Below, piece by piece: positions 33,469 to 57,237 of a stretch of 59,060 nt of DNA. This DNA comes from Rhodothermales bacterium. GTDB lineage: Bacteria; Bacteroidota; Rhodothermia; Rhodothermales; UBA10348. The stretch is from contig JBLFXH010000002.1 in assembly GCA_047611125.1 (NCBI GenBank), forward strand, positions 1 through 59,060, written 5' to 3'. The position numbers were made by a program, and so were the translations under genes. The notes below the pieces were generated by a model that did no database searches, was not told where the DNA came from, and saw only the letters and a list, made by a program, of their open reading frames with translations. Position 1 is the first letter of the stretch, and each line of letters starts with the position of its first letter.

Positions 33469-33545
33469 CTTGGAAACGGGCTTTGAGATAGTCGACCTCT
33501 GCCATTGGTGAGGCCCAAGTTACGTCGCTCCGCTGTCTTTGCTGT

Positions 33546-35662: not shown

Positions 35663-35687
35663 GGGCTGGAGCAGGCTGAAAGCGTGC

Positions 35688-36491: not shown

Positions 36492-36640
36492 TGGAAACCA
36501 GGATTTCGGTGATACAGGCCCATGAAACGAGGGGCTGATCCCGATTAGTACAATGGCCGTGCTTTATCGGCAGCGGAATCGAACCCGATCGGACTAATTT
36601 CAGTTCCGAATGGTGAGCGTCATTGCAAGAGGAAGGTGTA

Positions 36641-39627: not shown

Positions 39628-39630
39628 TCC

Positions 39631-40014: not shown

Positions 40015-40018
40015 TCGA

Positions 40019-41371
40019 TCAGACAGGTTTCAATTCAAAAGTCTCAAGGAAGCGGGTATCGAAATCGCCCGCGCGGAATTTCTCGTCTTTCAAGAGCTGA
40101 ATGTGGAAGGGAATCGTGGTATGCACGCCCTCGATCACAAACTCTTCCAGAGCCCGAAGTGCCTTCCGGATGGCCAGGTCACGCGTCTTGCCTCTGACGA
40201 TCAGTTTGGCAATCATCGAATCATAAAACGGGGGGACGACATAGCCGGCGTAGACGTGCGTGTCTACCCGAACACCGTGTCCGCCAGGCGCATGGAAAGC
40301 CGTGATTTTCCCGGGAGACGGCGAGAACGCCTTGAATGGATTCTCGGCATTGATGCGACACTCGATGGCGTGTCCGTCCATCGGCGGCGTCTCGGAGATG
40401 ATGCTCTCTCCCATGGCGACGCGAATCTGATACTGGATCAGGTCACAGTCCGTCACTTCTTCGGTGACCGGGTGTTCTACCTGGATCCGGGTATTCATTT
40501 CCATGAAGTAGAAGTTCTTGTCCGCGTCCACAAGGAACTCAACCGTACCAGCACCCTCGTAGTTCACTGCCTCGGAGCCCTTGATCGCGGCTTCTCCCAT
40601 GCGGCGACGCAGGTCCTCATCCACAATCGGGCTGGGTGCCTCCTCGAGAAGTTTCTGGTGACGACGTTGGATAGAGCACTCCCGCTCGCCAAAGTGAATG
40701 ACCTTGCCGCGCCCATCGCCCAGTACCTGGATCTCGACGTGGCGAGGGCCCGTCACAAACTTCTCGATATAGACTTCGCCATTGCCGAAGGCCGCCTCGG
40801 CCTCGTTCGATGCCATGGTATAGGAAGCCTCGAAGTCTTCCGCAGCCGTCACCATGCGCATACCTTTGCCACCGCCGCCGGCGCTGGCTTTGACGATGAC
40901 GGGGTAGCCGATTCCCTCTGCAATCTTCTTGGCCTCACCGATATCGTTGACAACGCCGTCAGATCCGGGAACGACCGGCACGCCAGCGGCGCGCATCGTG
41001 TCCTTGGCAAGGCTCTTGTCACCCATCATCCGAATAGTCTCCGGGGATGGACCGATGAACTTGATCTGGTGATCCTCGCAGATGGCGCTGAAGTCAGCGT
41101 TCTCGGCCAGGAAACCATATCCCGGATGGATGGCGTCTGCCCCGGTGACCTCGGCCGCGGCCAGAATTCGGTCGAACCGAAGATAGCTGTCCCGACTGGC
41201 CGGGGGGCCAATGCAGACGGCCTCGTCCGCGAACCGAACATGCAGGGAATCTCGGTCTGCCGTGGAATACACGGCCACCGTCTTGATTCCCATTTCGTGG
41301 CAGGTCCGGATAATGCGAAGGGCAATCTCGCCCCGGTTCGCAATGAGAACCTTGTTGATCTGTCTAAACAT
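40019..41371 (-). CDS. accC: Acetyl-CoA carboxylase biotin carboxylase subunit
   Basis: [14 protein letters not shown], the ATP-grasp GGGGKGMR and [14 protein letters not shown]. Confidence 0.97.
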
Positions 41372-41385
41372 GCCGGACCGGTTGG

Positions 41386-41880
41386 TCAGCTGGGATCGAT
41401 GAGGTACAGCGGCTGGTCGAATTCGACCGCCTGCGCATTATCCACAAGGATCTCGGTGATGGTGCCACTGACTTCACACTCAATCTCGTTCATCAGCTTC
41501 ATGGCCTCGATGATGCAGAGTATGTCGCCAGGTTTGACGCGGTCACCAACAGCGACGTAGTCGTCAGAGTCGGGAGAGGGCGCGCGATAGAAGGTCCCGA
41601 CAATGGGAGCGCGGATGGGCTCGCTGGCCGGGGCCGCCGGAGCAGCTGGAGGCGGAGCCGCGGGCATTGACGGCAGCGCCGCAGGTGCCTGCATGGGCGC
41701 ACCCATGGGCATGGCCTGCTGCGGCATCGGGTAGGGGTAGGGTTGAGGGGCCTGCTGGACCATGATGGTCGGGGCAGACTTGCGCACGACGAGCTTGAAG
41801 TCTTCGTCGTGTATTTCAACCTCGGCCACGCCGCTGTCGGCAACGACCTGGAGAAGCTCCCGGATGCGATCGATATCCAT
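41386..41880 (-). CDS. accB: Acetyl-CoA carboxylase biotin carboxyl carrier protein
   Basis: A Pro/Ala-rich linker and the biotinyl motif [12 protein letters not shown]. Confidence 0.95.
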
Positions 41881-41900
41881 CAGAGGTGGGTCTTCGGCGA

Positions 41901-42470
41901 TCAGGTGGTCGAGACACGAGTGACATAATCACCCTTGTCTGTGGTGACCTTGACCGTATCGCCTTCGTTGATGAAAAGGGGTACGAGGACAACTGCGCCG
42001 CTTTCGAGCGTTGCAGGCTTGGTCGCGCCCTGAGCGGTGTCACCCTTGAGACCGGGGTCGGTCTGGGTAACCACCAACTCCACGCTGGTCGGAATCTCGG
42101 TAGTCAGGGCTTGTTCGGTCTCGGAATGGAACAGTATCTCAAGCGTGCCGCCCTCCTTGATAAACTCGCGGCCCGGGACGCTTTCTTCTGGCAGAGATAG
42201 CTGCTCGTAGGTCTCCAGATTCATGAAATGGAGACCCAAGTCGTCCTGGTACAGATACTGGTAGGTGCGCCGCTCGATGCGCGCCGTCTCCATTTTCTCT
42301 CCGGCACGGAACGTGTTGTCCACGATCTTGCCGCTTCTGACATTTCTCAGCTTGGAGCGGACGAATGCCCCGCCCTTGCCGGGCTTAACGTGCTGGAATT
42401 CAATGATAGACCATAGGTCACCATTCCAGATCAAAGTCAGTCCGTTTCGGAAGTCGCTGGTAGAGGCCAT
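41901..42470 (-). CDS. efp: Elongation factor P
   Basis: [19 protein letters not shown] loop. 189 aa. Confidence 0.96.
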
Positions 42471-42546
42471 TCACTCGGAGAGTCGTTTCGCGCAAAGACA
42501 TCTAAGGTAGCCCGCTTGGGCTGATTCAGTCAATCAGTCGCGGTCC

Positions 42547-44262
42547 TCAGCGTCTGAATTCCCGGACAAGAGCGTCGATTGAGGCATCGCTCAAGGAGCC
42601 ATCGGAGCTTCCAGGTTGGGCATCGCTTTTCCCGCCTCCCCCGGCCTTTGGTGGCGCCGCTTGGCCCGCCCGCTGCTCCGGGGCTGCTGGCTGAGCCGGC
42701 GGGGCCGCCCGCTGCGCCGAGGAGCTACCCCGCCGGCTCGCTGACGGAGCGCCAGTAGCCGGATTCCCCGCTCGCGCTCGCAATCGGTCTTCGATCTCCG
42801 ATATCCATGATGTCCGGGAGTCCTTGCCTCCCGCGGGTGCGCTCTTCTTCGGCCGATGAGCCATGTTGCTTCCTGATTTTTGGGGAGCCTGCGCCTGGGT
42901 GGACCGGGCGCGGCTGGTCACGGGGCTGGTTTCAAATGCCACCCGCTTGATGTTCAGCAGGTGTAGCGGCGAGATGTTGTCGCTGGTAATTGAGCCGCCG
43001 ACGGTGCCAGGCCCCAGAGTCATGGCGGGAAAGAGCCTCGTGGTAAGGCCGACAGAGCCCAGCGCCGAGACAGAGTTCACCACGATGCGCATCGCAGGTT
43101 TTTGGATGGCGAAGGCCTCAATAATGCGCTCGTTGGTGGCGTGAATGGCGAGCGTGTGCCCCATGCCGCCGTACATCAGTACTTCCATGCACCGATCACA
43201 GCCAGCTTCCCATCCATCAACGGTATACAGCGTCAGAATAGGAGAGAGCGTCTCTCGGGACAGCGGGTCGGCAGATCCTACGACCGTTGATTCAGCAACC
43301 AGGGCGCGCGTCCCCCTCGGGACACGGAATCCACTCATTTCCGCGATGGCTTCGGGAGACTTGCCGACCTGCTCAATATTCAGGGACCCGTTCACAACGA
43401 CGGCCGCCTCAAGCAGGGGCCGTTCCTTGGCCGTTACCAGATGAGCTCCTGCGGCTCGCAGCCCCTCCAGTAGCGCTTTCTTGACGGGCAGGTCGCAGAC
43501 AATGCTTCGCTCCGTGGAGCAAAGCGTGCCCCAGTCAAAACTGGCGCCATAGACAAGGTCTTTCGCAGCCTTGGCTACGTCAGCGCTCCGGTCTACGTAG
43601 GCCGGCACGTTTCCCGACCCGACCCCGTAGGCCGGCTTTCCCTTGGAATAGGCCGCTTTTACCATGGCCGAACCTCCGGTTGCCAGAATCAGGTCAACCT
43701 CAGGGTCTTCCAGCAGCGCTTGCGTTCCGGCTAGGCTGACCTCAGTCATGCAGGCAAACAGGCCCTTTGGTGCGCCCGCCTTGTGGGCGGCTTGGGCTAC
43801 CACGTCCAACGCTGCTGCGGTGCAATTCTTGGCCCGCGGGTGCGGGCTCATCACAACAGCACATCTGGACTTTGCCGCAATGATGGCCTTATACATGGCC
43901 GTCGATGTGGGATTGGTCGAGGGGACCAAGGCCGCTACAACCCCCATCGGGCTGGCGACCTCCCAAATAGTATCGTTCTCCAGTTTCCGAATTACGCCGA
44001 CCGTGCGCATGCCCTCCATTCGCTCATGCAGGGTTTCTGTGGCGAAGAGATTCTTGGCCTTCTTGCTTTCCGGTCGCCCAAAGCCGGTTTCCTCGTGCGC
44101 CATCTTTCCTAACCGATCAGCCTGCGACGCGCCGGCCCGCACCATGGCCCCCACAATCCGATCGACCGCAACCTGGTCGAGCTTCTTTGCCTCGTGCGCG
44201 GCGGTGCGCGCAGCGCGCAGCAGTTGGCGGGCTTCCTGTATAGAGCGAAGATCTGAATCCAT
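42547..44262 (-). CDS. Aldehyde dehydrogenase family protein (acylating, EutE/PduP-like) with a 127-aa low-complexity C-terminal extension
   Basis: The ATG at 44262 (MDSDLRSIQEARQLL...) begins an ALDH core of about 444 aa, with a candidate catalytic-Cys region WGTLCSTERS. A P/A/G/S/R-rich tail follows, ending ...SLSDASIDALVREFRR. Confidence 0.75.
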   Translation of the reverse strand: MDSDLRSIQEARQLLRAARTAAHEAKKLDQVAVDRIVGAMVRAGASQADRLGKMAHEETGFGRPESKKAKNLFATETLHERMEGMRTVGVIRKLENDTIWEVASPMGVVAALVPSTNPTSTAMYKAIIAAKSRCAVVMSPHPRAKNCTAAALDVVAQAAHKAGAPKGLFACMTEVSLAGTQALLEDPEVDLILATGGSAMVKAAYSKGKPAYGVGSGNVPAYVDRSADVAKAAKDLVYGASFDWGTLCSTERSIVCDLPVKKALLEGLRAAGAHLVTAKERPLLEAAVVVNGSLNIEQVGKSPEAIAEMSGFRVPRGTRALVAESTVVGSADPLSRETLSPILTLYTVDGWEAGCDRCMEVLMYGGMGHTLAIHATNERIIEAFAIQKPAMRIVVNSVSALGSVGLTTRLFPAMTLGPGTVGGSITSDNISPLHLLNIKRVAFETSPVTSRARSTQAQAPQKSGSNMAHRPKKSAPAGGKDSRTSWISEIEDRLRARAGNPATGAPSASRRGSSSAQRAAPPAQPAAPEQRAGQAAPPKAGGGGKSDAQPGSSDGSLSDASIDALVREFRR

Positions 44263-44374
44263 GTCCGAAATATGATGGGAGGATCGGGACCAATCAAGGG
44301 GCAATCACACAAGCCCGAATCATCCGACTAACACAAATCGGACACAATTACCCGTACTCCCTTCTTGCCGGGAC

Positions 44375-45161: not shown

Positions 45162-47045
45162 CTAGCCATCGCTGGAGTCAATTCCGATCCTGCCGGTGTG
45201 GCGCGCGTTTCGCCCATACATGGGCCACTTGCCACCCGCGAGTCCCGCAGAGCCGGTCTTGAGACCGAAGAGGTGCCCGTTTCGTCCGGCGACGAGTAGC
45301 GTGCCCTCTCGGTTGATGGTCACAGGGCCATCAGCCTCTGTGTTCAGCTGGTACTCCCAGTTTGGGGTACCGTTGGTGTTGATGCCCATCACCTTACGTC
45401 CAGACACAAAGTGAATGACCCCGTTGGTGTCGATGGCGGGCATTCCCACATCGTCGGTCACAAACTTGTAGCGGAGGCGAGGCGTCAGCGCATCGGCCGT
45501 CTCGTTGAGGGCGAAGAGGCCGGTCTCTGTCCCGGCATAGATGGTTCCACTCCCATCAATGATGGGTCCGGAGACCTTCGTGCCGCCCAGTGCATAGTGC
45601 CAGAGGCGCGATCCGTCGAAGCCGCTGTAGGCGTACAGGCAGCCGTCATCGGCCATCACGTAGACCAGCGCCTCGGTGGAGCTCCGAATCTCGCCGGTGG
45701 GCAGTTCTACGGTGAGCTGGATCTCGGCGAGTGCCATCGGAGCGCGGGCCGCCCCGCCACCACAGGTACCGGATCCGCGGATGATTGACTGCCAGAGCAG
45801 CGTTCCCATCCGATCATATCCCGACAAGCGGCCCTGCGAGTCAGCAACAATCACGGTGTGGTCGCGGGTAATCACCGGAGCTTCTACGATCGAGCCGTCC
45901 GCGACCTTGACCGGGCTAGACCAGGCTGATAGGCCGTTAAAGGAGTTGACGGCGTGGAGATTGCCGAACGTGTCACCGAAGTACAACACGCCGTCTACGC
46001 CCATGGCCGGAGAGGATCGCAGCGGCGCTGAGCTGTTGTAGGGTACAGCCCACAGGTCGTTGCCCTCTGAGGTGAAGCCCCAGAGGCGCCCATCCTCACT
46101 GGTGACGAAGACGTCCTCGTTATTGCCGACCACCGGGGTCGAGCGAATCGGACCCTTCGTCTCACGCTGCCAGCGCAATTCGCCGTTGTTATTGAAGGCG
46201 TAGAGGGTGTTGTTCGACGAGCCCACGTAGATGTCGTCATTGAAACCGACAGCTACCGAACCCCTGACATCGCCAGAGAGCCCGGTGCCTCGGAATGCCA
46301 GCGTGCCAGGGCCGTCCTGGCCAGTGGGGTCGTCGCCATTGACGATTACTGAAATGGGACCGTTGAGGAGGAATACGCCTGCGCCACTGTACGCTTTGAT
46401 CTCAATCACGTGCGGTCCGCTCGTGAACTGCGATGTGTCCCAGTCAAAGGCGTAGGCGTTGCCGGCCACCGGAGTCGTGGTCGTGTAGAAGGCGATACCG
46501 TCGATCACCAGATCAACGCGAGTAACCGGAGGCTGGCCAGATCCTGCTTCCGCCAGAACGCGAACCGTACCAGAAACCACCTGCCCATCCTCGGGCTCAA
46601 GTATGTGGAGGAACGGCCCATCTCCTGCGCTGACGTTCTCAACGTCCACAAAGATGGGTGCCGAGATGCCGCGCGCCTCAAAGCGATCAAAGGCCACCGC
46701 TTCCATGCGGTGCGGACCGTCGGCCAGTTCGAAGGTGTTCAAGCGCAGGGCGTAGCGTGACCCGTCCCACTCTGCCTCACCAATGCGCGCGCCGTCCATC
46801 TGGACGTTGACGAAAGAGATGAAGTTCTCATCCCCAAGGGCAGTAGCATTGACAGCGATGACGGTGTTGGCACCCGTGAGAGTGGAGCCGTCAAAGGGAC
46901 GGTCCATCTGCACGCTTGGCGCGCGCTCATCGAAGGCCTCTCCAAAGATGTCGCATCCCGACACGAGAAGAGAAAGAAGGAGAATGCACATCAGCCCGCC
47001 ATTGCGGGTTGCGGTATTCATCATGGTAAGTGTGCTGCGCTTCAT
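45162..47045 (-). CDS. Lipoprotein with two Ig-like domains and a PQQ-like/BamB-like beta-propeller
   Basis: Lipobox LLVSGC, two Ig-like modules of about 100 aa (...GPHRMEAVAFD..., ...GPHVIEIKAY...) and repeated propeller blades (LYAFNNNGELRW, LWGFTSEGNDLW, CLYAYSGFDGSRLW). The C-terminal GKWPMYGRNARHTG is typical of this family. Confidence 0.7.
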   Translation of the reverse strand: MKRSTLTMMNTATRNGGLMCILLLSLLVSGCDIFGEAFDERAPSVQMDRPFDGSTLTGANTVIAVNATALGDENFISFVNVQMDGARIGEAEWDGSRYALRLNTFELADGPHRMEAVAFDRFEARGISAPIFVDVENVSAGDGPFLHILEPEDGQVVSGTVRVLAEAGSGQPPVTRVDLVIDGIAFYTTTTPVAGNAYAFDWDTSQFTSGPHVIEIKAYSGAGVFLLNGPISVIVNGDDPTGQDGPGTLAFRGTGLSGDVRGSVAVGFNDDIYVGSSNNTLYAFNNNGELRWQRETKGPIRSTPVVGNNEDVFVTSEDGRLWGFTSEGNDLWAVPYNSSAPLRSSPAMGVDGVLYFGDTFGNLHAVNSFNGLSAWSSPVKVADGSIVEAPVITRDHTVIVADSQGRLSGYDRMGTLLWQSIIRGSGTCGGGAARAPMALAEIQLTVELPTGEIRSSTEALVYVMADDGCLYAYSGFDGSRLWHYALGGTKVSGPIIDGSGTIYAGTETGLFALNETADALTPRLRYKFVTDDVGMPAIDTNGVIHFVSGRKVMGINTNGTPNWEYQLNTEADGPVTINREGTLLVAGRNGHLFGLKTGSAGLAGGKWPMYGRNARHTGRIGIDSSDG

Positions 47046-47566
47046 GGCAAGAGTTGGATTGTCTCCGGGTGGAATCGGACGTCACTGTGATCCGGTGAGG
47101 CCGCGGTGCGGTCGGGAATCATGTCATCAAGGTTCGGGCCAATCTCGTTTCGATTATGGCTAATCGTCCAAATCAGATCAAAAACGATGATGTCTGTCAA
47201 GAGATCGAGGTGCTGAAGGCCGGTACGCAATCATTGTGAGACCGAGAGTGAGCAGGCCAGGGCGGCCGTCTGCAAGAGTCTCTGCAAGCACCCTGCCGTT
47301 CTCTCTTTGATAGTGTGTCCCCTATAGGTAAGGAGTCGAACGTCCCACCCGGAATGACCGCCTTCTACAAGGTTGTCGGGCATCAGGACTTCAGAATTCC
47401 CAGCATCCGCCGATCCAATCCATTGCATGCGGCCTCCAATCTGGGGACCGTAGTGTCGATACCGATCTCAAACAGGGATTGGGCTAACCGATATCAAGGC
47501 AATGAATAGAGCCAAATCACACGAAATGACCTGTTTTCGCCGATCCGAAAGGACTCCGCGAATCTC

Positions 47567-47582
47567 GGCATACCGTTTGATG
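47567..47582 (+). promoter_or_regulatory. Candidate -24/-12-like element GGCAT-N5-TTGATG, 47 nt upstream of the first EPS-locus ATG
   Basis: Direct reading. It shares its pattern and exact distance to the ATG with the element at 54388-54403. The -12 reads TTGA rather than the consensus TTGC. Confidence 0.25.
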
Positions 47583-47629
47583 AAGGAGATTCCGGCTCCA
47601 AGCTCCATCGAATTCTCTGCCTGCTCATT

Positions 47630-48886
47630 ATGAAAGACACGCCTGCAAGCATGTCCGCATTCGCCGCAATGCTCTCTTCCGGTATCGATCCAATCGATGA
47701 GGAATGGGGCGGACTCTACCGCGGAGGTGCATACCTCGCCTTCGGACGCGCCGCTACCGGCCGCGGCCTCCTAACACTGCGCTATGCGCACACTGGTGTT
47801 CAGGGTGGCGAGCGCTGCCTGTTTATCGCATCGGATCGTCCCAAGGACCTGGTTATCCAGGCCGCCTCAATCGGGTTCGACCTGAAGCAGGCGCAACAGG
47901 ATAGCCTGATCCGCCTGATGCGGATTCCGCCGATGATGAATCCCCAGGCAATGGGCGATGACTCGGTGGCTAAGGCCCTCTGGGATCTCGTGACCATTAT
48001 CCGGAAGCAGCGTCCAGACCGCCTGGTCATCAACGACTTCATGCCGTTCGTGATGTTCAGGTCTTTCGACCGCTTCCGCATGGAGTTCATCCGGATGCTG
48101 GAGCAGATTGACTCCCTTGACACCACTGTGGTTGTTGCGCTGCCGGAGCCGGCCAACCCCCAGTCCCGGCGCGTGATTGACTTCATGGCAGGCCAAATGA
48201 CTGGCGCCGTGCATATCGAGTCGGCCGACGAGGAACTGTCGAGCACAGAGCGTCGCCTCACGCTCATCCCACACATTGGCCAGATCAAGCGGCAGGTTGT
48301 CCGCCATTGGGATCTCGCCGAGATTGTTATGACGCCGGGACAGGCGCCCCCGATTACCGAGGTTGTTCGCGAGAGCCCGCCGGTTGTCCCAGCTGCCCGC
48401 AAGTTTCCGCACGTTGCCCCTGATATGACGGCACCGGCACCGGCACCGGCAGCGCCGGCGCCCGAGAAGGAAGACGCACTCGAGCGCTATTCAGACCGCG
48501 GTCCCTTCCGCGATCGCCTCCAGAACTTCTTCGTCAACCGGGAGGACGAGAACAGTCCCTTCCTCCTGTTGGCCATGCGCATGGACCAGACCTCTGAGTC
48601 CGGTCCGGTAGACTTCGAATTCATTATCGACCTGGTGGCAGACAGCCTTCGCCCTCAGGACGACATGCTCATCAGCGCGATCAACGAACGCCTCGTTGTG
48701 CTGCTTGCTGAGAGCAAGCCTGAGGAAGCCCAGGGCTTCTTCGCTAGGCTGAAAAACCGACTGCGCGCAGACGCACCCAAGCAGGCAGATTATCTACTGC
48801 ATGCCGTGTCTGCGATCGTGGTGCCCGACGGCCGTCCATTTCAAAGTGCAGATGAGTTTCTCACTTATGCGATGGATGAGGCCTAA
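47630..48886 (+). CDS. KaiC/RecA-like domain (degenerate Walker A) fused to a degenerate GGDEF domain retaining an RxxD I-site; predicted c-di-GMP receptor/regulator
   Basis: The N-domain SGIDPIDEEWGGLYRGGAYLAFGRAATGRGLLTL...CLFIASD...RLVINDF follows the COG0467 KaiC/RadA pattern, but GxxGxGKT is replaced by GRAATGRG. A Pro/Ala linker (APAPAPAAPAP) follows. In the C-domain ...FLLLAMRMD...SLRPQDDMLISAINERLVVLLAES...AVSAIVV... aligns to GGDEF domains, with RPQD five residues before AINER in the GG(D/E)EF position. Confidence 0.7.
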   Translation: MKDTPASMSAFAAMLSSGIDPIDEEWGGLYRGGAYLAFGRAATGRGLLTLRYAHTGVQGGERCLFIASDRPKDLVIQAASIGFDLKQAQQDSLIRLMRIPPMMNPQAMGDDSVAKALWDLVTIIRKQRPDRLVINDFMPFVMFRSFDRFRMEFIRMLEQIDSLDTTVVVALPEPANPQSRRVIDFMAGQMTGAVHIESADEELSSTERRLTLIPHIGQIKRQVVRHWDLAEIVMTPGQAPPITEVVRESPPVVPAARKFPHVAPDMTAPAPAPAAPAPEKEDALERYSDRGPFRDRLQNFFVNREDENSPFLLLAMRMDQTSESGPVDFEFIIDLVADSLRPQDDMLISAINERLVVLLAESKPEEAQGFFARLKNRLRADAPKQADYLLHAVSAIVVPDGRPFQSADEFLTYAMDEA

Positions 48887-48901: not shown

Positions 48902-51900
48902 ATGACCTCATACAGGTACCTATTTGCCAGTCTGGTCGCCGCGATTATCGTGGCGACCATGCCTGTTTCTCTATACGCCCAGGATGTTGCGGCCCAGGCG
49001 AGAGCGGAAGCTGCCATTGAGCAGGGGCGCTATGATGAGGCCGTCACCATTCTCGATACGGTCATCCAACCCGGGAGCATCGATACCCGAGCCTTGCTCC
49101 TGAGGGCGAAGGCTCATCGTTTGATGGGGGACGAGCCATCAGCTGAAACCGACTTCCGTGCGGTTCTCGAGGTCGACCCCGCCAACCGGGAGGCGCTGGA
49201 CGGACTGCAAGAAATTCGTGGCCAGCGGTCACCCAATACGGGCAACGTGAATAGTCTCCGGCGACTGGTAGAGGCGAACCCAGACAATCTCTCCTTCCAG
49301 ATTCGCTACGCCGACGCCCTCTTCGATGGGCAGTACTACCGGGAGGCAGCCGATCAGTACAACATCTATCTGGATCAGACCCAGGGCACGCCCGATATCG
49401 TCCAGCGCTATCTGATCGCCATCGCCAACTATCAGGGTGACAACTCTTTGGGCGAGTCCGTGGCGACCGAGTACGTGGAGATCTATACCACGGACGACGA
49501 CCTCTGGATGCGTCTGGGCTTCTTTCGCCTCTGGCAGGGCAACTACGCCGGGGCACTCGAGGCTTGCGAACAGTCTCTGCTCTTGAATCCTTCCAATAGG
49601 GAGACACAGGATTGTACGCTTCAGGCCCGCAATCCAGACGTGATTGCACGCTCATCCACGTTCCCAATCGACGTGGCTTTCCGGGAAGTCCGGGCGAACC
49701 CCGATGACGATGCCCGTCGCTACCAGTTGATAGACCTCCTGATAGAGGCCGAGCGCTATTTCGAGGCTCGTCAGCAGTTGGATGTGCTTGCCGATCGCCG
49801 CGGCGGCGAAGCGCAATGGAAGAGCCGTGACCAGGCCGTGACGCGAGGCCTTGCCGCCTCTCCGCAGCCATTGTCAACGTTCCCGATTGACGTCAAGACG
49901 CGGGAGTTGATGGCCAAGCCGAGCAAGGACGAAACACGCTTTGAGCTAGTTGATCTGCTTGTAACGGATGATCGCTACTTCGAGGCTCGTCAGAATCTGG
50001 AGTACCTGCGTTCCGACCACAGAAACACTGATCGCTGGAAGACGCGTTGGGCTACGGTCTCAACCGCTCTAGCAAGGTTGGATGACGGCGGCCGGTCCCG
50101 CTTGTCAACCGACACTATCGATGTGCTGACCCGCCAGCTAATGTCGAATCCAAGTCAGGACGACAAACGCTTTGAACTGGTCGGTCTCCTACTGGAGAAT
50201 CGCCGGTACAACGAGGGCGATCAGAATCTTGACTACCTGGCCCCGCGTCATCGCCGGACCAACCAGTGGCGCCGACTCAATCAGCGCGCCGAGGCAGGGT
50301 TGCGCTCATTGGAACGCCGAGGCCGAGCCCCTGCGGTCCAGGAGTTCATCGTGGATCGTCTGTATCGCGAGCTGAGGTCCACTCCGAACGATGACGAGAA
50401 GCGATTCCGTCTAGTTACCGAGCTGATCAAGTACAACCGATTCGCAGAGGGTTGGGACCAGCTGAGGACCCTCCAGGCCGCACATGGCGAGGGCCGGCGC
50501 TGGCTTTCCGCCTTTGTCTCGGTGGATGACGGACTGGTTCGCGCCGGTACGCCCATATTCGCGATTGACCGTCTAACCTATCGCCTGGCCTTCGACCCTT
50601 CAGACTCGAGCGTTCGGCTCCAACTGGTGGATGCCTTGGCCGAGACCGGCCGCGTCTCCGAGGCGCTCGACATCCTGACCGATGAGCGGTATGCCGACCC
50701 CGGCAATCCCGGATACCAGAATCGACTGCGGACCATCGCAGAGATGCGTCTGGCCATTGCCCAAGAGGGTGTCATGGAACTGGAGGATGTCCTCGTGGCA
50801 AATCCCAGTAACCGGGAAGCACTTAGGGAGATCGCCAATCACTATCTCGTGCTTGGCCGCGATGAGGAAGCCTTCGAGACCTACGCCGCACTGCTGAGTG
50901 TAGAGCCGGGCAATGATGCACTTCGCGCTGACTTTGCCGAGGCCCTGCAGTTTCGCGGCTACTACGACCAGGCGCTGCTCCAGGCGGACTACCTCCTGGA
51001 CCGCCAGCCCGATAACACGGCCTTCCAGCGGCTGTTCGTCCTGGCCTCCATCTCTCAGGGAGATCTGGACCAGTTGGGAGAGGCATACGCTGAGAATCTG
51101 ATGGGCACCACGGGTCAAACTGATCCCGAACTGCTTCTGGTGCTGGCCGAGTACAGACTGCTCCGCGGAGACGTGGAGATGGCCGACAACTATGTTCGCG
51201 CAGCCGATGCGCTGAACGACTCCCGATTTGCCACGCGCATCTCGACGGTCGCTCAGTTGGTGGCCCGCGAGCGCATCCGTTCCGCCGAGGCCGACAGGAT
51301 CGAGCTTCTTAACGCCGCTCGCAGGCTTGCGGCGTCACGCAACTTCAACCAGTCTATTGACGCTTACGAGGACTACTTCGAGGCACAGGGACGCCGCTCG
51401 CGTTCCGAGCTGAAGGAGTTGGCTCAGGTGCATTCGGCTGCCGCCGATTACGTTTCGGCCCTGTCCATTCTTAACGCTCTGCAGGAACTGGCGTGGGAAT
51501 ACGATGTGGCCAAAGAAATTGCCCGCAACCAGTACTACCGGGACGACTACTCCGGCGCTCTCCGGACGCTTGAGGATCTCGCAACCCGCAACCCGCGTGA
51601 CTACGAAGTTCGTTTCCTGCAGGCAGACGCCTACCGGGAATTGGGTCTATTTACGCAGGCCGAGGCGGTATATGCCGACGCCCAGCGTCTGGCCGAGGCC
51701 TCCGAAGCAGTTGGAGAGCGGTCCGCTGCCCTGGACCTCAGCATGCGCCAGAGCCTGGCGCAGAGTGGCGAATGGAAGGGTCTCGAGTTTGCGGGCGTCA
51801 TCGTTCCCGTGGCCGAGGCCGTGTTGGCCCGCGGCGGCGGCACGCGATATGATCGTTGGGCACAAGGCATGCAGACGCATTTGATCATCCCTTGGGGATA

Positions 51901-52768
51901 CGGAACGGTATTCATGGCTGGCGTGAACTCGCACTTTATCGAGGGCACGCGGCAGTTGATTCCCGGCTCGGCAGAAACGGCCGGCCGCGTCAACCAGATT
52001 TTCGCAGCAGGCTATCGTGATCTCACGCCGCCGGAAGTCCAGTACAACCGCGCCTCGTATACGAACAGGCTGTCGGGCCAGGTTGGCATCTTTGACTATG
52101 AAGGCGGCCGGACCGTAGGCTTTGGTGGCATCAGCTACCTGCGCCAGGATCCGGGCGTGTACCGCGGTTCAGTGGGCGTTCGGGTTACCGAAGGTGCCAT
52201 CGATCTCTGGTCACCCGCAGGTGGCGAATACAACCTGCGGCTGACGCAGTTGAACTTCCGCGGTTGGGTGCCCAGCGTGATGCCGGATTCGACTCTGCGT
52301 CTGCACGGCAACGTCTCCTTCAATGTGGTGCGTGACAACTTCGGGACACCCGGCACGACCAACGACACCAATTTCGGGACCAACATCCTGCTTGAGGCCT
52401 CCTACAAAGTGGTGCCCAATACCTGGTTCGGGATGACCTACTACCAGATTGACTACCGCTCCCGGACGGACCTCTACTTCTCGCCGCGCAACTACTCCAG
52501 CTACGACATCTTCCTGGAGCACGAGAAGAACATCCCCTTCAAATCCTACATCCGTATTCGAGGCGCAATGGGCGTCGTAGCCCGCTCCTCGGGCTTCGTA
52601 TCTCGAAGCATCGAAATGGATTGGATCAAGCGGCTAGCCGCCAACTGGACATTCAACATGTCCGGCTCGCTGGGACAGTCCACTCGTTCGCTGGGATCAG
52701 GAGCGACCAGCTTCATCGATCAATACAACACATTCACGTTGTCTGCAGCGCTCTCCTGGACCCTTTAG
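48902..52768 (+). CDS. Outer-membrane exopolysaccharide export protein: long TPR scaffold plus C-terminal beta-barrel (PgaA/PelB/BcsC-like)
   Basis: Signal peptide ...MPVSLYAQD, about 950 aa of TPR-like helical repeats, and a last ~330 aa with alternating beta-strand pattern ending ...FTLSAALSWTL. The gene sits directly upstream of the GT2 synthase. Confidence 0.75.
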   Translation: MTSYRYLFASLVAAIIVATMPVSLYAQDVAAQARAEAAIEQGRYDEAVTILDTVIQPGSIDTRALLLRAKAHRLMGDEPSAETDFRAVLEVDPANREALDGLQEIRGQRSPNTGNVNSLRRLVEANPDNLSFQIRYADALFDGQYYREAADQYNIYLDQTQGTPDIVQRYLIAIANYQGDNSLGESVATEYVEIYTTDDDLWMRLGFFRLWQGNYAGALEACEQSLLLNPSNRETQDCTLQARNPDVIARSSTFPIDVAFREVRANPDDDARRYQLIDLLIEAERYFEARQQLDVLADRRGGEAQWKSRDQAVTRGLAASPQPLSTFPIDVKTRELMAKPSKDETRFELVDLLVTDDRYFEARQNLEYLRSDHRNTDRWKTRWATVSTALARLDDGGRSRLSTDTIDVLTRQLMSNPSQDDKRFELVGLLLENRRYNEGDQNLDYLAPRHRRTNQWRRLNQRAEAGLRSLERRGRAPAVQEFIVDRLYRELRSTPNDDEKRFRLVTELIKYNRFAEGWDQLRTLQAAHGEGRRWLSAFVSVDDGLVRAGTPIFAIDRLTYRLAFDPSDSSVRLQLVDALAETGRVSEALDILTDERYADPGNPGYQNRLRTIAEMRLAIAQEGVMELEDVLVANPSNREALREIANHYLVLGRDEEAFETYAALLSVEPGNDALRADFAEALQFRGYYDQALLQADYLLDRQPDNTAFQRLFVLASISQGDLDQLGEAYAENLMGTTGQTDPELLLVLAEYRLLRGDVEMADNYVRAADALNDSRFATRISTVAQLVARERIRSAEADRIELLNAARRLAASRNFNQSIDAYEDYFEAQGRRSRSELKELAQVHSAAADYVSALSILNALQELAWEYDVAKEIARNQYYRDDYSGALRTLEDLATRNPRDYEVRFLQADAYRELGLFTQAEAVYADAQRLAEASEAVGERSAALDLSMRQSLAQSGEWKGLEFAGVIVPVAEAVLARGGGTRYDRWAQGMQTHLIIPWGYGTVFMAGVNSHFIEGTRQLIPGSAETAGRVNQIFAAGYRDLTPPEVQYNRASYTNRLSGQVGIFDYEGGRTVGFGGISYLRQDPGVYRGSVGVRVTEGAIDLWSPAGGEYNLRLTQLNFRGWVPSVMPDSTLRLHGNVSFNVVRDNFGTPGTTNDTNFGTNILLEASYKVVPNTWFGMTYYQIDYRSRTDLYFSPRNYSSYDIFLEHEKNIPFKSYIRIRGAMGVVARSSGFVSRSIEMDWIKRLAANWTFNMSGSLGQSTRSLGSGATSFIDQYNTFTLSAALSWTL
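49655..50765 (+). repeat. Five tandem divergent 71-79-aa protein repeats inside the TPR scaffold gene
   Basis: Units begin STFPIDVAFREVRANPDDDARRYQLIDLL.., STFPIDVKTRELMAKPSKDETRFELVDLL.., STDTIDVLTRQLMSNPSQDDKRFELVGLL.., FIVDRLYRELRSTPNDDEKRFRLVTEL.., IFAIDRLTYRLAFDPSDSSVRLQLVDAL... The nucleotide periods are 219, 231, 237 and 213. Confidence 0.8.
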
Positions 52769-52798: not shown

Positions 52799-54289
52799 AT
52801 GGCCGACGAAACGAAAAACGAAAACCCGCCGGTAACTGCGCCGCCTGCCCAGAGAGATGAATCTCTGAGCCGCACGCAGTTCCAGCCCGTACGCAGTGCC
52901 GACGAGGGCATGCTTGGGCCGCGTGAGAACGAATCAGTTCTGGTGAGGCGCATCCTCATCTACGGATTCCTCTCGCTCGTCCTCTTCGGGATCATTTGGT
53001 TCTTTATGGAGGATCCAGGCGGATACCTGTCACGCTGGACCAATAGGCCGGTATCACTCTCTTGGAAAGGCCTGATTGTGTACTCGTCCATCGTGGCACT
53101 GGTGCTCTTCCTGGTGATCCTTCTGTTCCGGTACTTGAGCCTGATGAACATGGCGTACCTGAACACTACCAAGCACACCATTGAAGAGGGGCACGACCCC
53201 AACTTTCTGCCGCCGGTGTCCATCATTGTGCCGGCCTTCAATGAAGGCAAGCTGCTCCACTCAACGGTGGCCTCTCTGCTCGAGATGGACTATCCGCACT
53301 ACGAAATCCTGCTGGTGGATGACGGCTCAACCGATGACACCCGTCAGGTAGCCCGCGATCTGGTTGGGATCTACAGGCAGGGTACGGTCGAAGTGCGTCT
53401 GGTCGAGAAGTCCAATGGTGGCAAGGCCACAGCACTGAACGCCGGAATCCAGGTATCCCGTTATGACTACGTCCTGAATGTGGACGGCGATTCACAGCTT
53501 TCGCCCGATACCCTCCGGAAGACCATACGTCACTTTGTGGATCCGCGTCTCGGCGCCATCGCCGGGAACGTGAAGGTTCTCAACCGGGACAACGTCTGGA
53601 CGACCCTGCAGGCGCTAGAGTACGTGGAGGGCCTGAACATGGCCCGTTCCGCACAGTCCATCGTCAAGCTCGTGAACATCATCCCAGGTCCGCTGGGTCT
53701 GTTTCGCAAGCAGGCTATCGTGGATGCTGGCTGGTACAGCTCCGATACGTTCGCTGAGGATGCTGACATCACGCTGAAGATCATCCGTGCTGGATGGCGC
53801 GTGGAGTACGAGCCCGATGCCAAGTCCTACACGGAGGCGCCGGACAAAATTGTGGATCTGCTGAAGCAGCGGTACCGCTGGACGCGTGGAATCATCCAGG
53901 CCGTCCGCAAGCACCGCGATCTCTTCTTCAATCCCACAATCAACTTCGGTGGAACGATTGTGATGTGGTCGATGGCCTTTGAGGCCCTCATCTGGCCCAT
54001 CATGAACATCTTCGCCAACGCCTACTTCATTTTCATCGCGTTGGTCTTCGACATGAGTTACTACCTGGTCTATTGGTGGCTCAGTCTGACCATCCTGGAT
54101 CTCATTGCAGCGCTGTACTGCGTTGCTGTTGAGAAGGAAGAGGCACGTCTGGTCTTCTACTCGCTCTTCTATCGGCTCTTCTTCATCCTCATTGTGGACG
54201 TCTGTAAGACCTTCGCAACTGTCGAGGAATTCCTCGGCATCGGCATGAGCTGGGGCAAGCTGGAGCGCATCGGAAGCGGCTCGAAATAA
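52799..54289 (+). CDS. Processive GT2 exopolysaccharide synthase, PgaC/IcaA-like (poly-beta-1,6-GlcNAc synthase-like)
   Basis: VSIIVPAFNE, LVDDGSTDDT, NGGKATALNAG, NVDGDS (DxD), GAIAGNVKVLNR, FAEDADIT and QRYRWTRG (QxxRW) are present. There are 2 N-terminal and about 3-4 C-terminal TM helices. The central region aligns by eye to IcaA. Confidence 0.85.
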   Translation: MADETKNENPPVTAPPAQRDESLSRTQFQPVRSADEGMLGPRENESVLVRRILIYGFLSLVLFGIIWFFMEDPGGYLSRWTNRPVSLSWKGLIVYSSIVALVLFLVILLFRYLSLMNMAYLNTTKHTIEEGHDPNFLPPVSIIVPAFNEGKLLHSTVASLLEMDYPHYEILLVDDGSTDDTRQVARDLVGIYRQGTVEVRLVEKSNGGKATALNAGIQVSRYDYVLNVDGDSQLSPDTLRKTIRHFVDPRLGAIAGNVKVLNRDNVWTTLQALEYVEGLNMARSAQSIVKLVNIIPGPLGLFRKQAIVDAGWYSSDTFAEDADITLKIIRAGWRVEYEPDAKSYTEAPDKIVDLLKQRYRWTRGIIQAVRKHRDLFFNPTINFGGTIVMWSMAFEALIWPIMNIFANAYFIFIALVFDMSYYLVYWWLSLTILDLIAALYCVAVEKEEARLVFYSLFYRLFFILIVDVCKTFATVEEFLGIGMSWGKLERIGSGSK

Positions 54290-54450: not shown

Positions 54451-54882
54451 ATGGAACTAGTCCCGATTCTCTCGACAATCATCCTCGTAGGAACAATTGC
54501 CACGTTCATTCTCGCCGTGGCCGCCTACATCCTTTACAAGATTCGTGAGGGCAAAGCCCGTGAGTCGCACCAGCAGACCGGATACATGCAGCAGGAGCCG
54601 CACGTTCTGGTTGCTCCCGACCGCGGCCAGCAGCCCATGATCCAGCAGACGGCTCCGGCCCCTGCGTCGATGTACCAGCCGGCCCCTGGCCAGCAGGCTC
54701 AGCGTCAGCAGCTGCAGGCTCCTCAGCAGCAGGGTCAGAATCCCAATTCTCTCTTCTGGGAGTACACCGACGAAGGCTTCGTTCCGGTGAACCCGCAGCA
54801 GGAGCAGGTCCAGCCGCAACAGCAGCAGGCACCTCAGTCCCCGCAGCAGCCCCAGCAGGACGAAGGATACGCCTGGCTCTAG
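54451..54882 (+). CDS. Single-pass membrane protein with Gln/Pro-rich low-complexity tail
   Basis: TM helix LVPILSTIILVGTIATFILAVAAYILY followed by KIREGKAR (positive-inside rule, so the tail is predicted cytoplasmic). The tail is about 105 aa and dominated by Q and P (QQAQRQQLQAPQQQGQ..., QQEQVQPQQQQAPQSPQQPQQ), ending DEGYAWL. Confidence 0.6.
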   Translation: MELVPILSTIILVGTIATFILAVAAYILYKIREGKARESHQQTGYMQQEPHVLVAPDRGQQPMIQQTAPAPASMYQPAPGQQAQRQQLQAPQQQGQNPNSLFWEYTDEGFVPVNPQQEQVQPQQQQAPQSPQQPQQDEGYAWL

Positions 54883-54926: not shown

Positions 54927-57233
54927 ATGGCACTGCCTCGACTCGAAAGGATTAACACGCTCTGGTTCGTGACGCTCGGCGTCACCGCCTTGGCCGCCGC
55001 GATCCTGGTGTACATCCTCCTGCTGGAGTCCGCCCTGGGCGCCTTCAGCATCAAGGATGCCTCACCACTGGCGATTGGCGAGACGTCAAAGCCGAGCGTG
55101 GCACTCCTACAGAGTGACTACACTAAGCAGGTCCATCGTGAGCTGAACCTCCGCGACACCACGACCACGTGGGTTGACGAGACCCTTCTTTCATGGCGCG
55201 AGTTTCTCATCGAGAAAGAGCGTAAGATTTCCTTCAAAGACATCAGCGACCGTGAGCTGGAAGAAGGATCTCTGGAAGACTACGACGTCCTGATTCTGCC
55301 TTCTGTGAGGGCGATGTCAGATGTCCAGATCCAGCGTATCAAGGAGTTCATGCAGCGCGGTGGTAGTGTTCTGGCCACCTGGACCCCGGGCGTTTACCGT
55401 CCCGACGGATCCTGGCGTGGATGGAGCTTTGTGGAAGAGGCATTCGGATTGGAGTTCCAGGGATTCGTGGAGCGTGGCGTCGGTAACTATCGCGTCTACA
55501 CAGACACCTTCCCAGGCCACACGCCGGCCGGTATCTACTTCCCCGAGTACCTCGCAGACAACGAAGTCTCTGACCCCTTCGACGGGACTAGTTCCAGAGA
55601 CTTTGTTTTCCGCGAGACCCAGAGAAGTGAGGCGCGCTCGTCTGACTTCCCGCCGCTCCGCACCTACGAGTGGAACGACACACTGGGCACGCAACCGCCG
55701 ACCCGCGACTATGCTCGCGCCGAAATCGTGAACGCTCCTATGCGTAACACGTCGGGCGAGCTGACCTATCAGGACGCTGTCAAAGTGACCTACTTCACCT
55801 GGATTGGTGGAGACCCGACGGCCGAGATTCCCTATCCCCGGACGAACGCCGGTATCCGACGCTTCACACTTCGCGGTAACACGCCGCTGACGGCCAACGT
55901 GCCTTCGGGCTATCGCGTCAAGATTCAGGTCTACAACCCGGGCGTCAAGGTTCGGGTCACTGAGCCCGAGCGGACGCAGTCGGGCGGCTTCTGGTATGAC
56001 TTTGCCACCGATGACCTGGTGAGCACTGACGCTGTCGATGCCACAACAGGTGTCGCCTACGGCACCTATGGCGAAGGCCGCTTTGTCTACCTGGGCTTCC
56101 AGCGCAACGCCATGGGCGTCGGGCCGGATGATACAGAAGACTGGCTCCAGCTCGGCAAGGTGTTCGCCAACATGATGAACTACCTGCGCCGCAAGCCGGT
56201 GATCTGGGTTCATGACTGGCCGTATCCCTACAAGTCAGCCGGCATGATGACCGGTGTCGCCGAAGACAACACCCAGGCATTGGGACCAGTCGTCGAGATG
56301 CTGGAAAACGAAAATTTCCCCGGCACGTTCTTCGTGCAGCCGGAAAACTCCCAGGGCCAGTCGGCCCTCGTCAGTCGGATGTACGATCTGGGTGATGTCG
56401 GCGTCTACGACACGCTTCGGACCCGCAGTGACGGATCAACGGCTGTTCAGGCGCAACGTCTGCAGCGCCTACGCATTTCCTTGGAAGGTCTGGCCGGTGG
56501 CCGCCCGATCAAGGGATATCGCTCCACCGAGCGAGGCATGCTCAGCAACGAGACCATGGGTGGTCTGGTGGACGCTGGCGTCTATACCTACTTCATGCCT
56601 GACTCAATCGGTCGTCGTACGACGCCGAAGGTGATGGGCGAGCCCTTCGAGTCCCTCACCCGTATTGGCGTGACCACTCGGAGCGACAAAGATATTCTGG
56701 GTGGCGATGCCACCATCTCGATGGACTTGGCCTCAAGCCTGATTCAGGACGGCATCCGCCGGGCTGAATATGAAGGTGGCCTGTTCAATATGGTCTACTC
56801 TGGTGAGCTGTTGGGTCAGAACGTCGGCGTCCTCAGGGGCGTGGCAAGGACCCTGAAGAGTGGCAACTTCTGGAACGCCTCCGGCGACCAGATTGCCCAC
56901 TGGTGGAGGCTCCATGAGGGACTGAATGCTGACGTTGAGCAGCGGGGTCCATCTCGGATTTTCGTCCGGGTGTCGAATGACAACGGAGACATCGCGCAGA
57001 ACGCCTCCATCAGCATCGCGCTGGGACGCTCTGTCGAGTCTGTAAATATCCGCCCAGAGCTGATCAACATCTTTAAGGTGTTCGGCGAAGGAGAGGACAT
57101 TCCGTCCTACGAACTGCACGAGAACGGCACTGTGCTCGTGATGCCCATCACCGAGCTGAAGCCGCAGCAGTACCGGATCTTCCACATTGACCTCATCGGC
57201 CCTGAGACCGATCCGTTCCGCCAGGACCGCTAG
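54927..57233 (+). CDS. Membrane-anchored periplasmic protein: GATase1-like/GH42M-like motif plus CE4 (NodB)-like region with non-canonical catalytic motifs
   Basis: N-terminal TM LWFVTLGVTALAAAILVYILLL, then DYDVLILPSVRAMSDVQIQRIKEFMQRGGSVLATW. The later MMTGVAEDN...FPGTFFV...LGDVGVYDTL...KGYRSTERG lines up with the CE4 motifs TFDDG / ATFF / GHExGxH / RPPYG, but without the His pair. Paralogous to the next gene. Confidence 0.5.
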   Translation: MALPRLERINTLWFVTLGVTALAAAILVYILLLESALGAFSIKDASPLAIGETSKPSVALLQSDYTKQVHRELNLRDTTTTWVDETLLSWREFLIEKERKISFKDISDRELEEGSLEDYDVLILPSVRAMSDVQIQRIKEFMQRGGSVLATWTPGVYRPDGSWRGWSFVEEAFGLEFQGFVERGVGNYRVYTDTFPGHTPAGIYFPEYLADNEVSDPFDGTSSRDFVFRETQRSEARSSDFPPLRTYEWNDTLGTQPPTRDYARAEIVNAPMRNTSGELTYQDAVKVTYFTWIGGDPTAEIPYPRTNAGIRRFTLRGNTPLTANVPSGYRVKIQVYNPGVKVRVTEPERTQSGGFWYDFATDDLVSTDAVDATTGVAYGTYGEGRFVYLGFQRNAMGVGPDDTEDWLQLGKVFANMMNYLRRKPVIWVHDWPYPYKSAGMMTGVAEDNTQALGPVVEMLENENFPGTFFVQPENSQGQSALVSRMYDLGDVGVYDTLRTRSDGSTAVQAQRLQRLRISLEGLAGGRPIKGYRSTERGMLSNETMGGLVDAGVYTYFMPDSIGRRTTPKVMGEPFESLTRIGVTTRSDKDILGGDATISMDLASSLIQDGIRRAEYEGGLFNMVYSGELLGQNVGVLRGVARTLKSGNFWNASGDQIAHWWRLHEGLNADVEQRGPSRIFVRVSNDNGDIAQNASISIALGRSVESVNIRPELINIFKVFGEGEDIPSYELHENGTVLVMPITELKPQQYRIFHIDLIGPETDPFRQDR

Positions 57234-57237
57234 AACT

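Follow-up and report, generated by a model that had tools for sequence, protein, structure and literature searches.

A degenerate KaiC- and GGDEF-like protein at the head of a putative PNAG-like exopolysaccharide operon in Rhodothermales and Ignavibacteria

PelD of the Pseudomonas Pel system, a membrane-anchored protein that carries a GAF domain, has a degenerate GGDEF domain that serves as an inhibitory-site (I-site) receptor for cyclic di-GMP (c-di-GMP), and it is encoded together with a tetratricopeptide repeat (TPR) protein and a glycosyltransferase. For the N-terminal domain of BcsE, a protein of enterobacterial type II cellulose secretion, a RecA-like fold is predicted that overlays on KaiC and has a degenerate Walker A motif; the C-terminal degenerate REC-GGDEF module binds c-di-GMP through an RxxD motif, and the protein is recruited by the small membrane peptide BcsF (PMC7439463). 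Listeria PssE is outlined as a degenerate-GGDEF I-site receptor encoded in an exopolysaccharide (EPS) operon (PMC4125290). Here we analyze a gene for a protein of related architecture from Rhodothermales bacterium (assembly GCA_047611125.1). It lies on a stretch of 59,060 nucleotides (the window: contig JBLFXH010000002.1, positions 1 to 59,060, forward strand; G+C about 60%) at the head of a five-gene operon that, judged from the encoded proteins, would direct synthesis of an EPS resembling poly-N-acetylglucosamine (PNAG). We refer to its product as the regulator.

The regulator is soluble and cytoplasmic. A flexible linker joins its two parts, of which one is a dead KaiC/RecA-like module and the other a dead GGDEF fold. 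Every catalytic residue has been lost from both domains while the folds are kept. The gene is the conserved first gene of its operon across two phyla. We interpret the protein as a subunit, cytoplasmic and without catalytic activity, that regulates a PNAG-like EPS system or acts as its adaptor, with c-di-GMP as the leading candidate ligand in this lineage, and we assign this interpretation a probability of about 40%. That the regulator belongs functionally to the EPS machinery we consider likely.

To define the family, we searched protein databases and recovered 136 close relatives (E ≤ 1e-3), all from Rhodothermales or from metagenome-assembled genomes (MAGs) of Bacteroidota; the 120 listed share 39-100% identity with the regulator. 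They are annotated solely as "KaiC/GvpD/RAD55 family ATPase" or "hypothetical". A single-sequence scan of contigs yielded four close loci, and further diversity was supplied by a metagenome scan with the family alignment. A second clade, from Ignavibacteria, is 24-30% identical over the full length and numbers 1210 database proteins at E ≤ 1e-5. When the C-domain was used as a phmmer query against 1.84 billion representative proteins, 139 family matches were returned (E ≤ 1e-3). The domain is always C-terminal in these matches, which are 360-726 aa long apart from fragments, and no other architecture occurs among them. Conservation was counted in three sets: 121 close Rhodothermales orthologues, 82 full-length representatives clustered at 50% identity, and 120 Ignavibacteria.

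A sequence-only reading of the window had assigned the N-domain to the KaiC/RadA pattern and proposed a check with Pfam. KaiC model PF06745 matched aa 16-172 well above its threshold (E = 1.6e-15; 57.6 bits against a cut-off of 26.6), as it did all 68 family members scanned. In a Foldseek search with the full-length model (predicted local distance difference test, pLDDT, 86), the N-domain matched KaiC and FlaH at E of about 1e-13. The assignment to the KaiC/RecA-like ATPase fold thus stands. The same reading had noted that the Walker A motif is degenerate, and the loss proved wider. In phmmer alignments to PDB chains, GRAATGRG takes the place of KaiC GTPGTGKT, where an active P-loop ATPase would have GxxxxGK[ST]. 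The KaiC catalytic Glu pair, within TFEES, aligns to S68-D69. The regulator IND falls on the Walker B ID of KaiC RVVIDS, with N135 at the canonical Asp.

The altered P-loop is a family trait. R45 is found in 118 of the 121 close homologues and 62 of the 82 representatives, and the Ignavibacteria have Arg (112) or Lys (8) there. RPKD (R70/P71/K72/D73) is invariant in all 120 Ignavibacteria and nearly invariant in the close set, and position 135 is Asn in 97/121 close homologues. The Ignavibacteria keep the Walker A Thr (GxxKSGRT) and a canonical Walker B, FDE (120/120). The catalytic Glu is absent from every clade.

The C-domain was recognized through its predicted structure. For aa 280-418, AlphaFold gave a model from 68 homologues with a pLDDT of 89.6 and a predicted template modelling score of 0.85. 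In a Foldseek search of the PDB with this domain, each of the best 49 matches was a GGDEF domain, and 27 reached E ≤ 1e-3. The highest identity among these matches (20-25%) was to PelD, with a TM-score of up to 0.68. These results agree with the earlier claim that the C-domain aligns to GGDEF domains, and the structure prediction which that reading had called for returned the expected fold. The scan with PF00990 (GGDEF) that it had also suggested gave no match to the regulator; what did appear was a GGDEF_2 match (E = 0.0037, 17.9 bits) under the cut-off of 24.5. Over the 68 family members, Pfam matches comprised GGDEF_2 in 57, GGDEF in nine (best E = 0.0045) and PelD_GGDEF, weakly, in six.

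Attempts to establish GGDEF homology from sequence failed with both methods used. A profile of 25 family C-domains retrieved no GGDEF chain from the PDB, and hhalign of the C-domain profile against PleD and a Geobacter GGDEF domain was not significant (probability 0.5%, E = 0.11). The fold search alone is decisive, and on that basis the C-domain is predicted to have a GGDEF, or nucleotidyl-cyclase-like, fold.

Residue assignment was facilitated by the hhalign register, for which the PleD sequence had been verified against PDB chains. R341 and D344 of the RPQD motif align to PleD R359 and D362, the RxxD of the I-site, and R373 aligns to R390, the I-site's third residue. For R317 and D319 the PleD counterparts are D327 and D329; for E353 and R354 they are E370 and E371, within GGEEF. 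The model has RPQD directly ahead of the strand at 345-349, and AINER forms a hairpin at 350-354 before the strand at 354-360. As the weak register agrees with the model topology, the description of a dead active site (A-site) with an I-site-like triad in place is correct for the window protein. The signatures of a diguanylate cyclase, GG(D/E)EF and the metal-binding Asp of strand beta1, are missing, with AINER and R317-M-D319 in their places. The features of an I-site receptor, an RxxD five residues before the GGDEF turn and an Arg in helix alpha3, are present under an alignment that is not significant and is consistent with topology. Position is what counts here, since an RxxD also arises by chance at R286-D289 within the C-domain and the motif is not evidence by itself. 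The sequence-only reading had placed RPQD at the I-site and found AINER and RMD at the active site, all of which the register and fold support; R373 had escaped it.

Both domain folds are intact, as would be expected if the protein were enzymatically active, be it as a diguanylate cyclase or as an ATPase or autokinase of the KaiC type. Given the substitutions in Walker A (Lys and Thr), at the catalytic Glu pair and at the Asp of Walker B, together with AINER in place of GG(D/E)EF and Arg instead of the first metal-binding Asp, we regard an enzymatic role as highly improbable.

Because the R341/D344/R373 triad is intact in the window protein, c-di-GMP is the leading candidate ligand for this lineage. 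R341 is kept in 94 of 121 close orthologues (78%), D344 in 120 and R373 in 103, and the complete triad in 83. Among the 82 representatives these counts fall to 26, 52 and 23, with the complete triad in only six. In Ignavibacteria the register around R341 is ambiguous and there is no canonical RxxD; D344 corresponds under one register to the Asp of a K-D pair, and position 373 is Lys or Arg in 118/120. A Rhodothermales sub-clade with G341 has R337 instead, one helical turn earlier. R337 is present in 19 of the 27 close orthologues that lack R341 versus 18 of the 94 others, a comparison among phylogenetically non-independent sequences; the enrichment suggests that an Arg is needed at that surface and is a hint of compensation.

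Several observations weigh against our interpretation. The residue register relative to PleD combines a non-significant hhalign alignment with predicted topology. RxxD occurs in just 26 of the 82 representatives. All 120 Ignavibacteria are non-canonical, with an invariant R-L-S-T-D-[KR]-K-D-K that is not RxxD under either register; they nevertheless keep both an Arg and an Asp, and position 373 remains basic. The C-domain residues under the strongest conservation (R317, R354, G401 and F404) lie outside the I-site. Neither a c-di-GMP riboswitch nor any other Rfam family was found in the window or the upstream region, and no ORF (open reading frame) for a canonical GGDEF cyclase was present in 1.18 Mb of sequence from the window and 88 related, partly redundant loci, a weak negative given that these redundant loci are small parts of genomes and that cyclases may be encoded elsewhere. 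An RxxD that is not conserved among orthologues had been named in advance as a result that would speak against a c-di-GMP receptor; the motif is kept in 78% of close orthologues, but it is rare among the representatives and non-canonical in Ignavibacteria. This distribution weakens the c-di-GMP hypothesis without refuting it for the window's lineage. If real, c-di-GMP sensing would be lineage-specific, since the I-site is not family-wide. We lean against binding of c-di-GMP by the regulator at this site.

The other contrary observations come from loci that break the operon pattern. In Rhodocaloribacter litoris (L001; CP076718, 10001-11326) and at a second locus (L089; 10001-11557), the regulator is intact and has its RxxD, and no EPS genes stand alongside. 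It lies directly beside a convergent PIG-L gene, and the genes for the TPR protein, glycosyltransferase family 2 (GT2) protein, small membrane protein and deacetylase are absent. The same PIG-L gene follows the complete operon at L090, L093 and L094. At these two loci, the four structural genes seem to have been cleanly deleted and the regulator spared. Three further loci (L002-L004) hold only the regulator and the TPR protein, which may form a module of their own. Conversely, L092 has the GT2, small-protein and deacetylase-like genes, and no regulator or TPR gene within 8 kb. From these exceptions, the operon is modular.

Some features of these loci are recorded for completeness. At L002-L004 and L040, the regulator and a large TPR protein are followed by convergent genes for a multihaem/TPR protein and a DUF5723 protein, with GlmS upstream; L004 additionally has two polysaccharide deacetylase genes. 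L092 (8001-11749) derives from a MAG labelled Acidobacteriota, and its deacetylase-like protein has 632 aa. GT2 homologues that are about 60% identical occur in MAGs labelled Bacillota, Clostridiales or Syntrophothermus. Core modules of the L092 type could reflect mis-binning or horizontal transfer.

The operon pattern itself is widely kept. Searches of the 88 related loci by tblastn revealed the same five-gene order in both clades (regulator, TPR/porin-like protein, PgaC-like GT2, small single-pass membrane protein and carbohydrate esterase family 4 (CE4) deacetylase-like protein), and contigs from complete genomes agree. The order holds in relatives of 45-94% identity and in the Ignavibacteria, where the GT2 is 53-60% identical and the regulator merely about 25%. 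The earlier claim that the gene heads an EPS operon is thereby borne out. Within the window, the gaps between consecutive genes after the regulator are 15, 30, 161 and 44 bp.

The exceptional loci raise the question of whether regulator and EPS genes are neighbors through inherited synteny in the Fibrobacterota-Chlorobiota-Bacteroidota (FCB) group, the regulator having a function unrelated to EPS. Its persistence by itself in R. litoris and L089, both times beside that PIG-L gene, and the core GT2 operon without a regulator at L092, would fit. Against this stands the tight co-linearity over two phyla at about 25% regulator identity and between completely different flanking genes, which normally indicates functional coupling. 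We consider an unrelated function improbable.

The classic ligand pockets of the two domains hold strongly conserved charged residues (G39/G44/R45 in the P-loop; R317/R354 at the former A-site). R317 is present in 117/121 close orthologues and 77/82 representatives, with Arg or Lys in 111/120 Ignavibacteria. R354 is present in 117/121 and 74/82, with Lys in 89/120 Ignavibacteria, and its neighbor E353 in 119/121 close orthologues. Conserved pocket charges point to a bound anionic ligand rather than to a purely structural role. They argue against a ligand-independent assembly or scaffold factor, in which the KaiC-like module would oligomerize, the GGDEF fold would be a protein-interaction module and the RxxD would be a relic or a coincidence. 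Such a factor would explain why RxxD is poorly kept across the family, and the flexible linker of highly variable length is typical of tethering proteins. The N-terminal domain and degenerate GGDEF domain of BcsE have protein-binding roles too (PMC7439463). On balance, we think a pure scaffold unlikely.

The conserved charges could instead serve an anionic ligand other than c-di-GMP. The regulator might bind ATP or GTP, unhydrolysed, through its Arg P-loop, or a nucleotide, nucleotide sugar or alarmone at the former A-site, in which two conserved arginines stand in for the metal-binding carboxylates, and so couple EPS production to metabolic state. R45 is conserved in all clades, and RecA K72R binds ATP without hydrolysing it. 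The Ignavibacteria combine GxxKSGRT with a canonical FDE Walker B, and some even have the Lys. No C-domain residues are better conserved than R317 and R354, and these positions are basic in both clades. The closest Pfam model by sequence, GGDEF_2, is annotated in Pfam merely as GGDEF-like; we take it to be the domain found in PucR/CdaR-type regulators, for which no binding of c-di-GMP is known. Set against these points, the window protein has also lost the Walker A Thr and Walker B Asp, making Mg-nucleotide binding doubtful, the GTP-recognition residues of GGDEF domains are unrecognizable, and we know of no precedent for an Arg-pair A-site. A different ligand of this kind is, in our estimate, quite unlikely.

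A related proposal concerns the family as a whole. Its common sensor would be, rather than the I-site, a remodelled pocket formed by the Arg-for-Lys P-loop, the R317/R354 pair or both, in which a nucleotide-type ligand, bound without metal, gates the synthase. The regulator would then be an independently evolved BcsE-like subunit of a hitherto undescribed PNAG-like system of the FCB group, and c-di-GMP binding at the I-site a secondary acquisition or a retention in only part of the Rhodothermales. We doubt this version, too.

Under the interpretation that we prefer, an inert regulatory or adaptor subunit, the KaiC-like module would act in oligomerization or docking and, by means of the invariant Arg in its P-loop, may still bind phosphate or a nucleotide. 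Ligand sensing would fall to the GGDEF-like module, whose occupancy would control the assembly or activity of the synthase formed by the GT2 and the small subunit, post-translationally, as PelD, BcsE and PssE do.

Comparison with described systems identifies BcsE as the closest working analogue, and a BcsE-like architecture appears to have arisen independently here. Like BcsE, the regulator is a cytoplasmic EPS-operon protein with a RecA/KaiC-like N-domain of degenerate Walker A and a degenerate C-terminal GGDEF domain with RxxD. Both operons encode a small single-pass membrane protein, the BcsE partner BcsF in one case and the 143-aa protein in the other. The differences are also clear. The regulator has a disordered linker in place of the degenerate REC domain, its N-domain is still recognized as KaiC by Pfam whereas that of BcsE is not, and the I-site is not conserved across its family. 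The operon is PNAG-like rather than cellulosic and lacks BcsQ and BcsR. A test of homology to BcsE gave a negative result: hhalign against E. coli BcsE returned a probability of 0.26%, and CBP_BcsE matched two of 68 family members at E of at least 0.056. The resemblance is therefore architectural only. The sequence-only reading had stated, correctly, that BcsE has a degenerate ATPase-like N-terminal module (PMC7439463). Its suggestion of a possible distant architectural analogue of BcsE is supported; the regulator has no degenerate REC domain.

PelD, with its degenerate GGDEF domain and its TPR and glycosyltransferase neighbors, is similar in those respects, and of the solved degenerate GGDEF domains it comes closest in both sequence and structure. 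The regulator differs in being soluble, with a KaiC-like domain where PelD family members have transmembrane helices and GAF, and the glycosyltransferase here is a PgaC-like GT2 rather than the GT4 PelF. With KaiC and ArlH (FlaH) the regulator shares the fold and an above-threshold Pfam family match; it differs in having a single rather than a tandem domain, replaced catalytic motifs and a fused GGDEF-like domain.

The structural genes most resemble PgaABCD/IcaADBC: a processive GT2 with QxxRW, a small membrane partner encoded after the synthase, a periplasmic protein resembling CE4 deacetylases, and a TPR protein that may include a porin. Unlike PgaABCD, the window operon has a GT2 that scores under the equivalog cut-off, a small protein with one transmembrane helix that is not a PgaD homologue, a deacetylase fused to a domain resembling class I glutamine amidotransferases (GATase1-like) and a membrane anchor, and the extra cytoplasmic gene for the degenerate KaiC-GGDEF protein at its head. 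These taxa do not appear in a systematic survey of how pga operons vary, and neither does any KaiC-like gene (PMC7112194). Full-text literature searches returned no description of the architecture or the operon in Rhodothermus or Ignavibacteria, and no GGDEF census of these taxa. The regulator is a previously undescribed variant of the degenerate-GGDEF co-regulator theme in EPS operons.

Coordinates of the regulator, its motifs and the operon are compiled in Table 1; those of GRAATGRG, RPQD and AINER were checked. RMD and an (AP)n run at about aa 268-278 are visible in the translation. The start codon of the regulator is ambiguous between nt 47630 and Met8 at nt 47651. An identical database protein (P0001, 411 aa) begins at Met8, and residues 1-10 have pLDDT <50 and lack conservation. 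Linker length varies between homologues (proteins of 406-726 aa), and in the full-length model aa 243-277 are disordered.

Table 1. Regulator, motifs and operon genes in the window
Feature	Position (nt)	Strand	Basis
Divergent intergenic region, 584 bp, presumed operon promoter region	47046..47629	.	gene spacing
Regulator ORF, 418 aa	47630..48886	+	ORF call and translation
KaiC/RecA-like N-domain, catalytically degenerate, aa 12-232	47663..48325	+	Pfam, PDB alignments, Foldseek, pLDDT >90
P-loop remnant GRAATGRG, aa 39-46: Lys to Arg (R45), Thr to Gly (G46)	47744..47767	+	PDB phmmer alignment to KaiC GTPGTGKT
IASDRPKD, aa 66-73: S68-D69 at KaiC catalytic Glu pair	47825..47848	+	aligned to KaiC TFEES
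Walker B remnant RLVINDF, aa 131-137: N135 for canonical Asp	48020..48040	+	aligned to KaiC RVVIDS
Disordered Pro/Ala-rich linker, aa 233-282	48326..48475	+	pLDDT <50 at aa 243-277
Predicted degenerate GGDEF-fold C-domain, aa 283-418	48476..48883	+	model, Foldseek, weak Pfam matches
R317-M-D319, strand beta1, in place of DxD metal-binding motif	48578..48586	+	hhalign register
RPQD, aa 341-344, I-site-like RxxD just before strand beta2	48650..48661	+	hhalign register, motif position
AINER, aa 350-354, beta2-beta3 hairpin, in place of GG(D/E)EF	48677..48691	+	hhalign register, motif position
R373, aligned to PleD R390	48746..48748	+	hhalign register
Secreted TPR protein, 1288 aa	48902..52768	+	TPR Pfam matches, weak PgaA match, signal-peptide-like N-terminus
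GT2 synthase, membrane, 496 aa, PgaC/IcaA-like, QRYRW processivity motif	52799..54289	+	Pfam GT2, NCBIfam
Single-pass membrane protein, 143 aa, Gln/Pro-rich tail	54451..54882	+	sequence and homologue comparison
Membrane-anchored protein, 768 aa, GATase1-like (GH42M/ThuA-like) and CE4-deacetylase-like	54927..57233	+	family Pfam, profile vs PDB

The gene that follows the regulator encodes the TPR protein, and not the GT2 as had been stated. Past about aa 1000 (nt ~51900-52765), its composition turns from helix-former-rich to beta- and aromatic-rich for about 290 aa, and the C-terminus reads ...LSAALSWTL. A sequence search of this part against the PDB for PgaA and BcsC barrels gave no match; it is the composition that suggests a putative porin. 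By its sequence features, the protein is a candidate PgaA/BcsC-like scaffold with a porin. The GT2 scored best with PgaC_IcaA (TIGR03937; E = 5e-58), at 197 bits against an equivalog cut-off of 422, so that it is PgaC-like rather than PgaC at the equivalog level.

The small membrane protein has an N-terminal transmembrane helix, MELVPILSTIILVGTIATFILAVAAYILYKIRE, which is about 85% identical between Rhodothermales and Ignavibacteria and far better conserved than any other operon protein. Its C-terminal motif is FWEYTDEGFVPV...AWL in one clade and KFLKYTSEGYV...LKWR in the other. Homologues occur in L005-L088, L090 and L092-L094. Probably, the protein is an integral subunit of the synthase, with a short docking motif in its low-complexity tail. 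As a docking site for the regulator, FWEYTDEGFVPV found no support, being fully kept in L092 with no regulator within 8 kb; docking would still be possible if the L092 regulator is encoded elsewhere. The sequence-only reading had further proposed that the regulator replaces control of the PgaD/PilZ type. With a PgaD/BcsF-like small membrane protein following the GT2 in all full operons, such a replacement is unlikely.

The last operon gene encodes an unusual fusion of a membrane anchor, a GATase1-like domain (GH42M/ThuA/ABC_transp_aux-like) and a CE4-like domain. Over 24 members of this 768-aa family, Pfam matched Glyco_hydro_42M in all 24 and Polysacc_deac_1 in 15 (best 8.5e-10), and the family profile matched polysaccharide and peptidoglycan N-acetylglucosamine deacetylases in the PDB. 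The CE4 domain was not detected in the window copy taken singly. An ORF of 238 aa without a Pfam match (56733-57449, minus strand) shares about 500 bp with the 3' end of this gene. The conservation seen for it in tblastn probably mirrors only that of the overlapping plus-strand gene, which would make it a shadow ORF. Taken together, the encoded proteins identify the operon as a predicted PNAG-like, synthase-dependent EPS secretion system.

Upstream of the regulator, the divergent intergenic region contained no terminator, and its sigma-70-like matches were only on the minus strand. Beyond it, a divergent gene (45162-47045, minus strand) encodes a 627-aa protein with a PQQ/BamB-like beta-propeller and Big_7 Ig-like domains. 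This protein adjoins the regulator in most Rhodothermales loci (44-92% identity) and is absent from the Ignavibacteria loci. A block at about 33500-44300 (minus strand) encodes a glycoside hydrolase family 3 (GH3) protein, a TPR/periplasmic-binding protein, GMP synthase, biotin carboxylase, biotin carboxyl carrier protein (BCCP), elongation factor P (EF-P) and an aldehyde-dehydrogenase-like protein. It also flanks the regulator in L001, L090 and L094; L001 and L090 carry GcvH too. The shared block marks the locus as an old, stable Rhodothermales chromosomal position and not a mobile island.

The five-gene PNAG-like operon defined here is unreported by published pga surveys. Its regulator belongs to a family of more than 1300 protein clusters that are annotated solely as "KaiC/RAD55-like ATPase" or "hypothetical". 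The contrast between a variable I-site and conserved Arg pockets is an unexplained feature of this large and phylogenetically coherent family. The family also offers a natural experiment: if members with and without the I-site are compared, it could become clear whether control by c-di-GMP is ancestral or grafted, and which ligands the conserved Arg-P-loop and Arg-pair pockets bind. Post-translational control of synthase-dependent EPS by degenerate GGDEF proteins is mainly known in Proteobacteria and Firmicutes, from PelD, BcsE and PssE. The family would extend that principle to Rhodothermales and Ignavibacteria, in which c-di-GMP and the biofilm matrix have hardly been studied.

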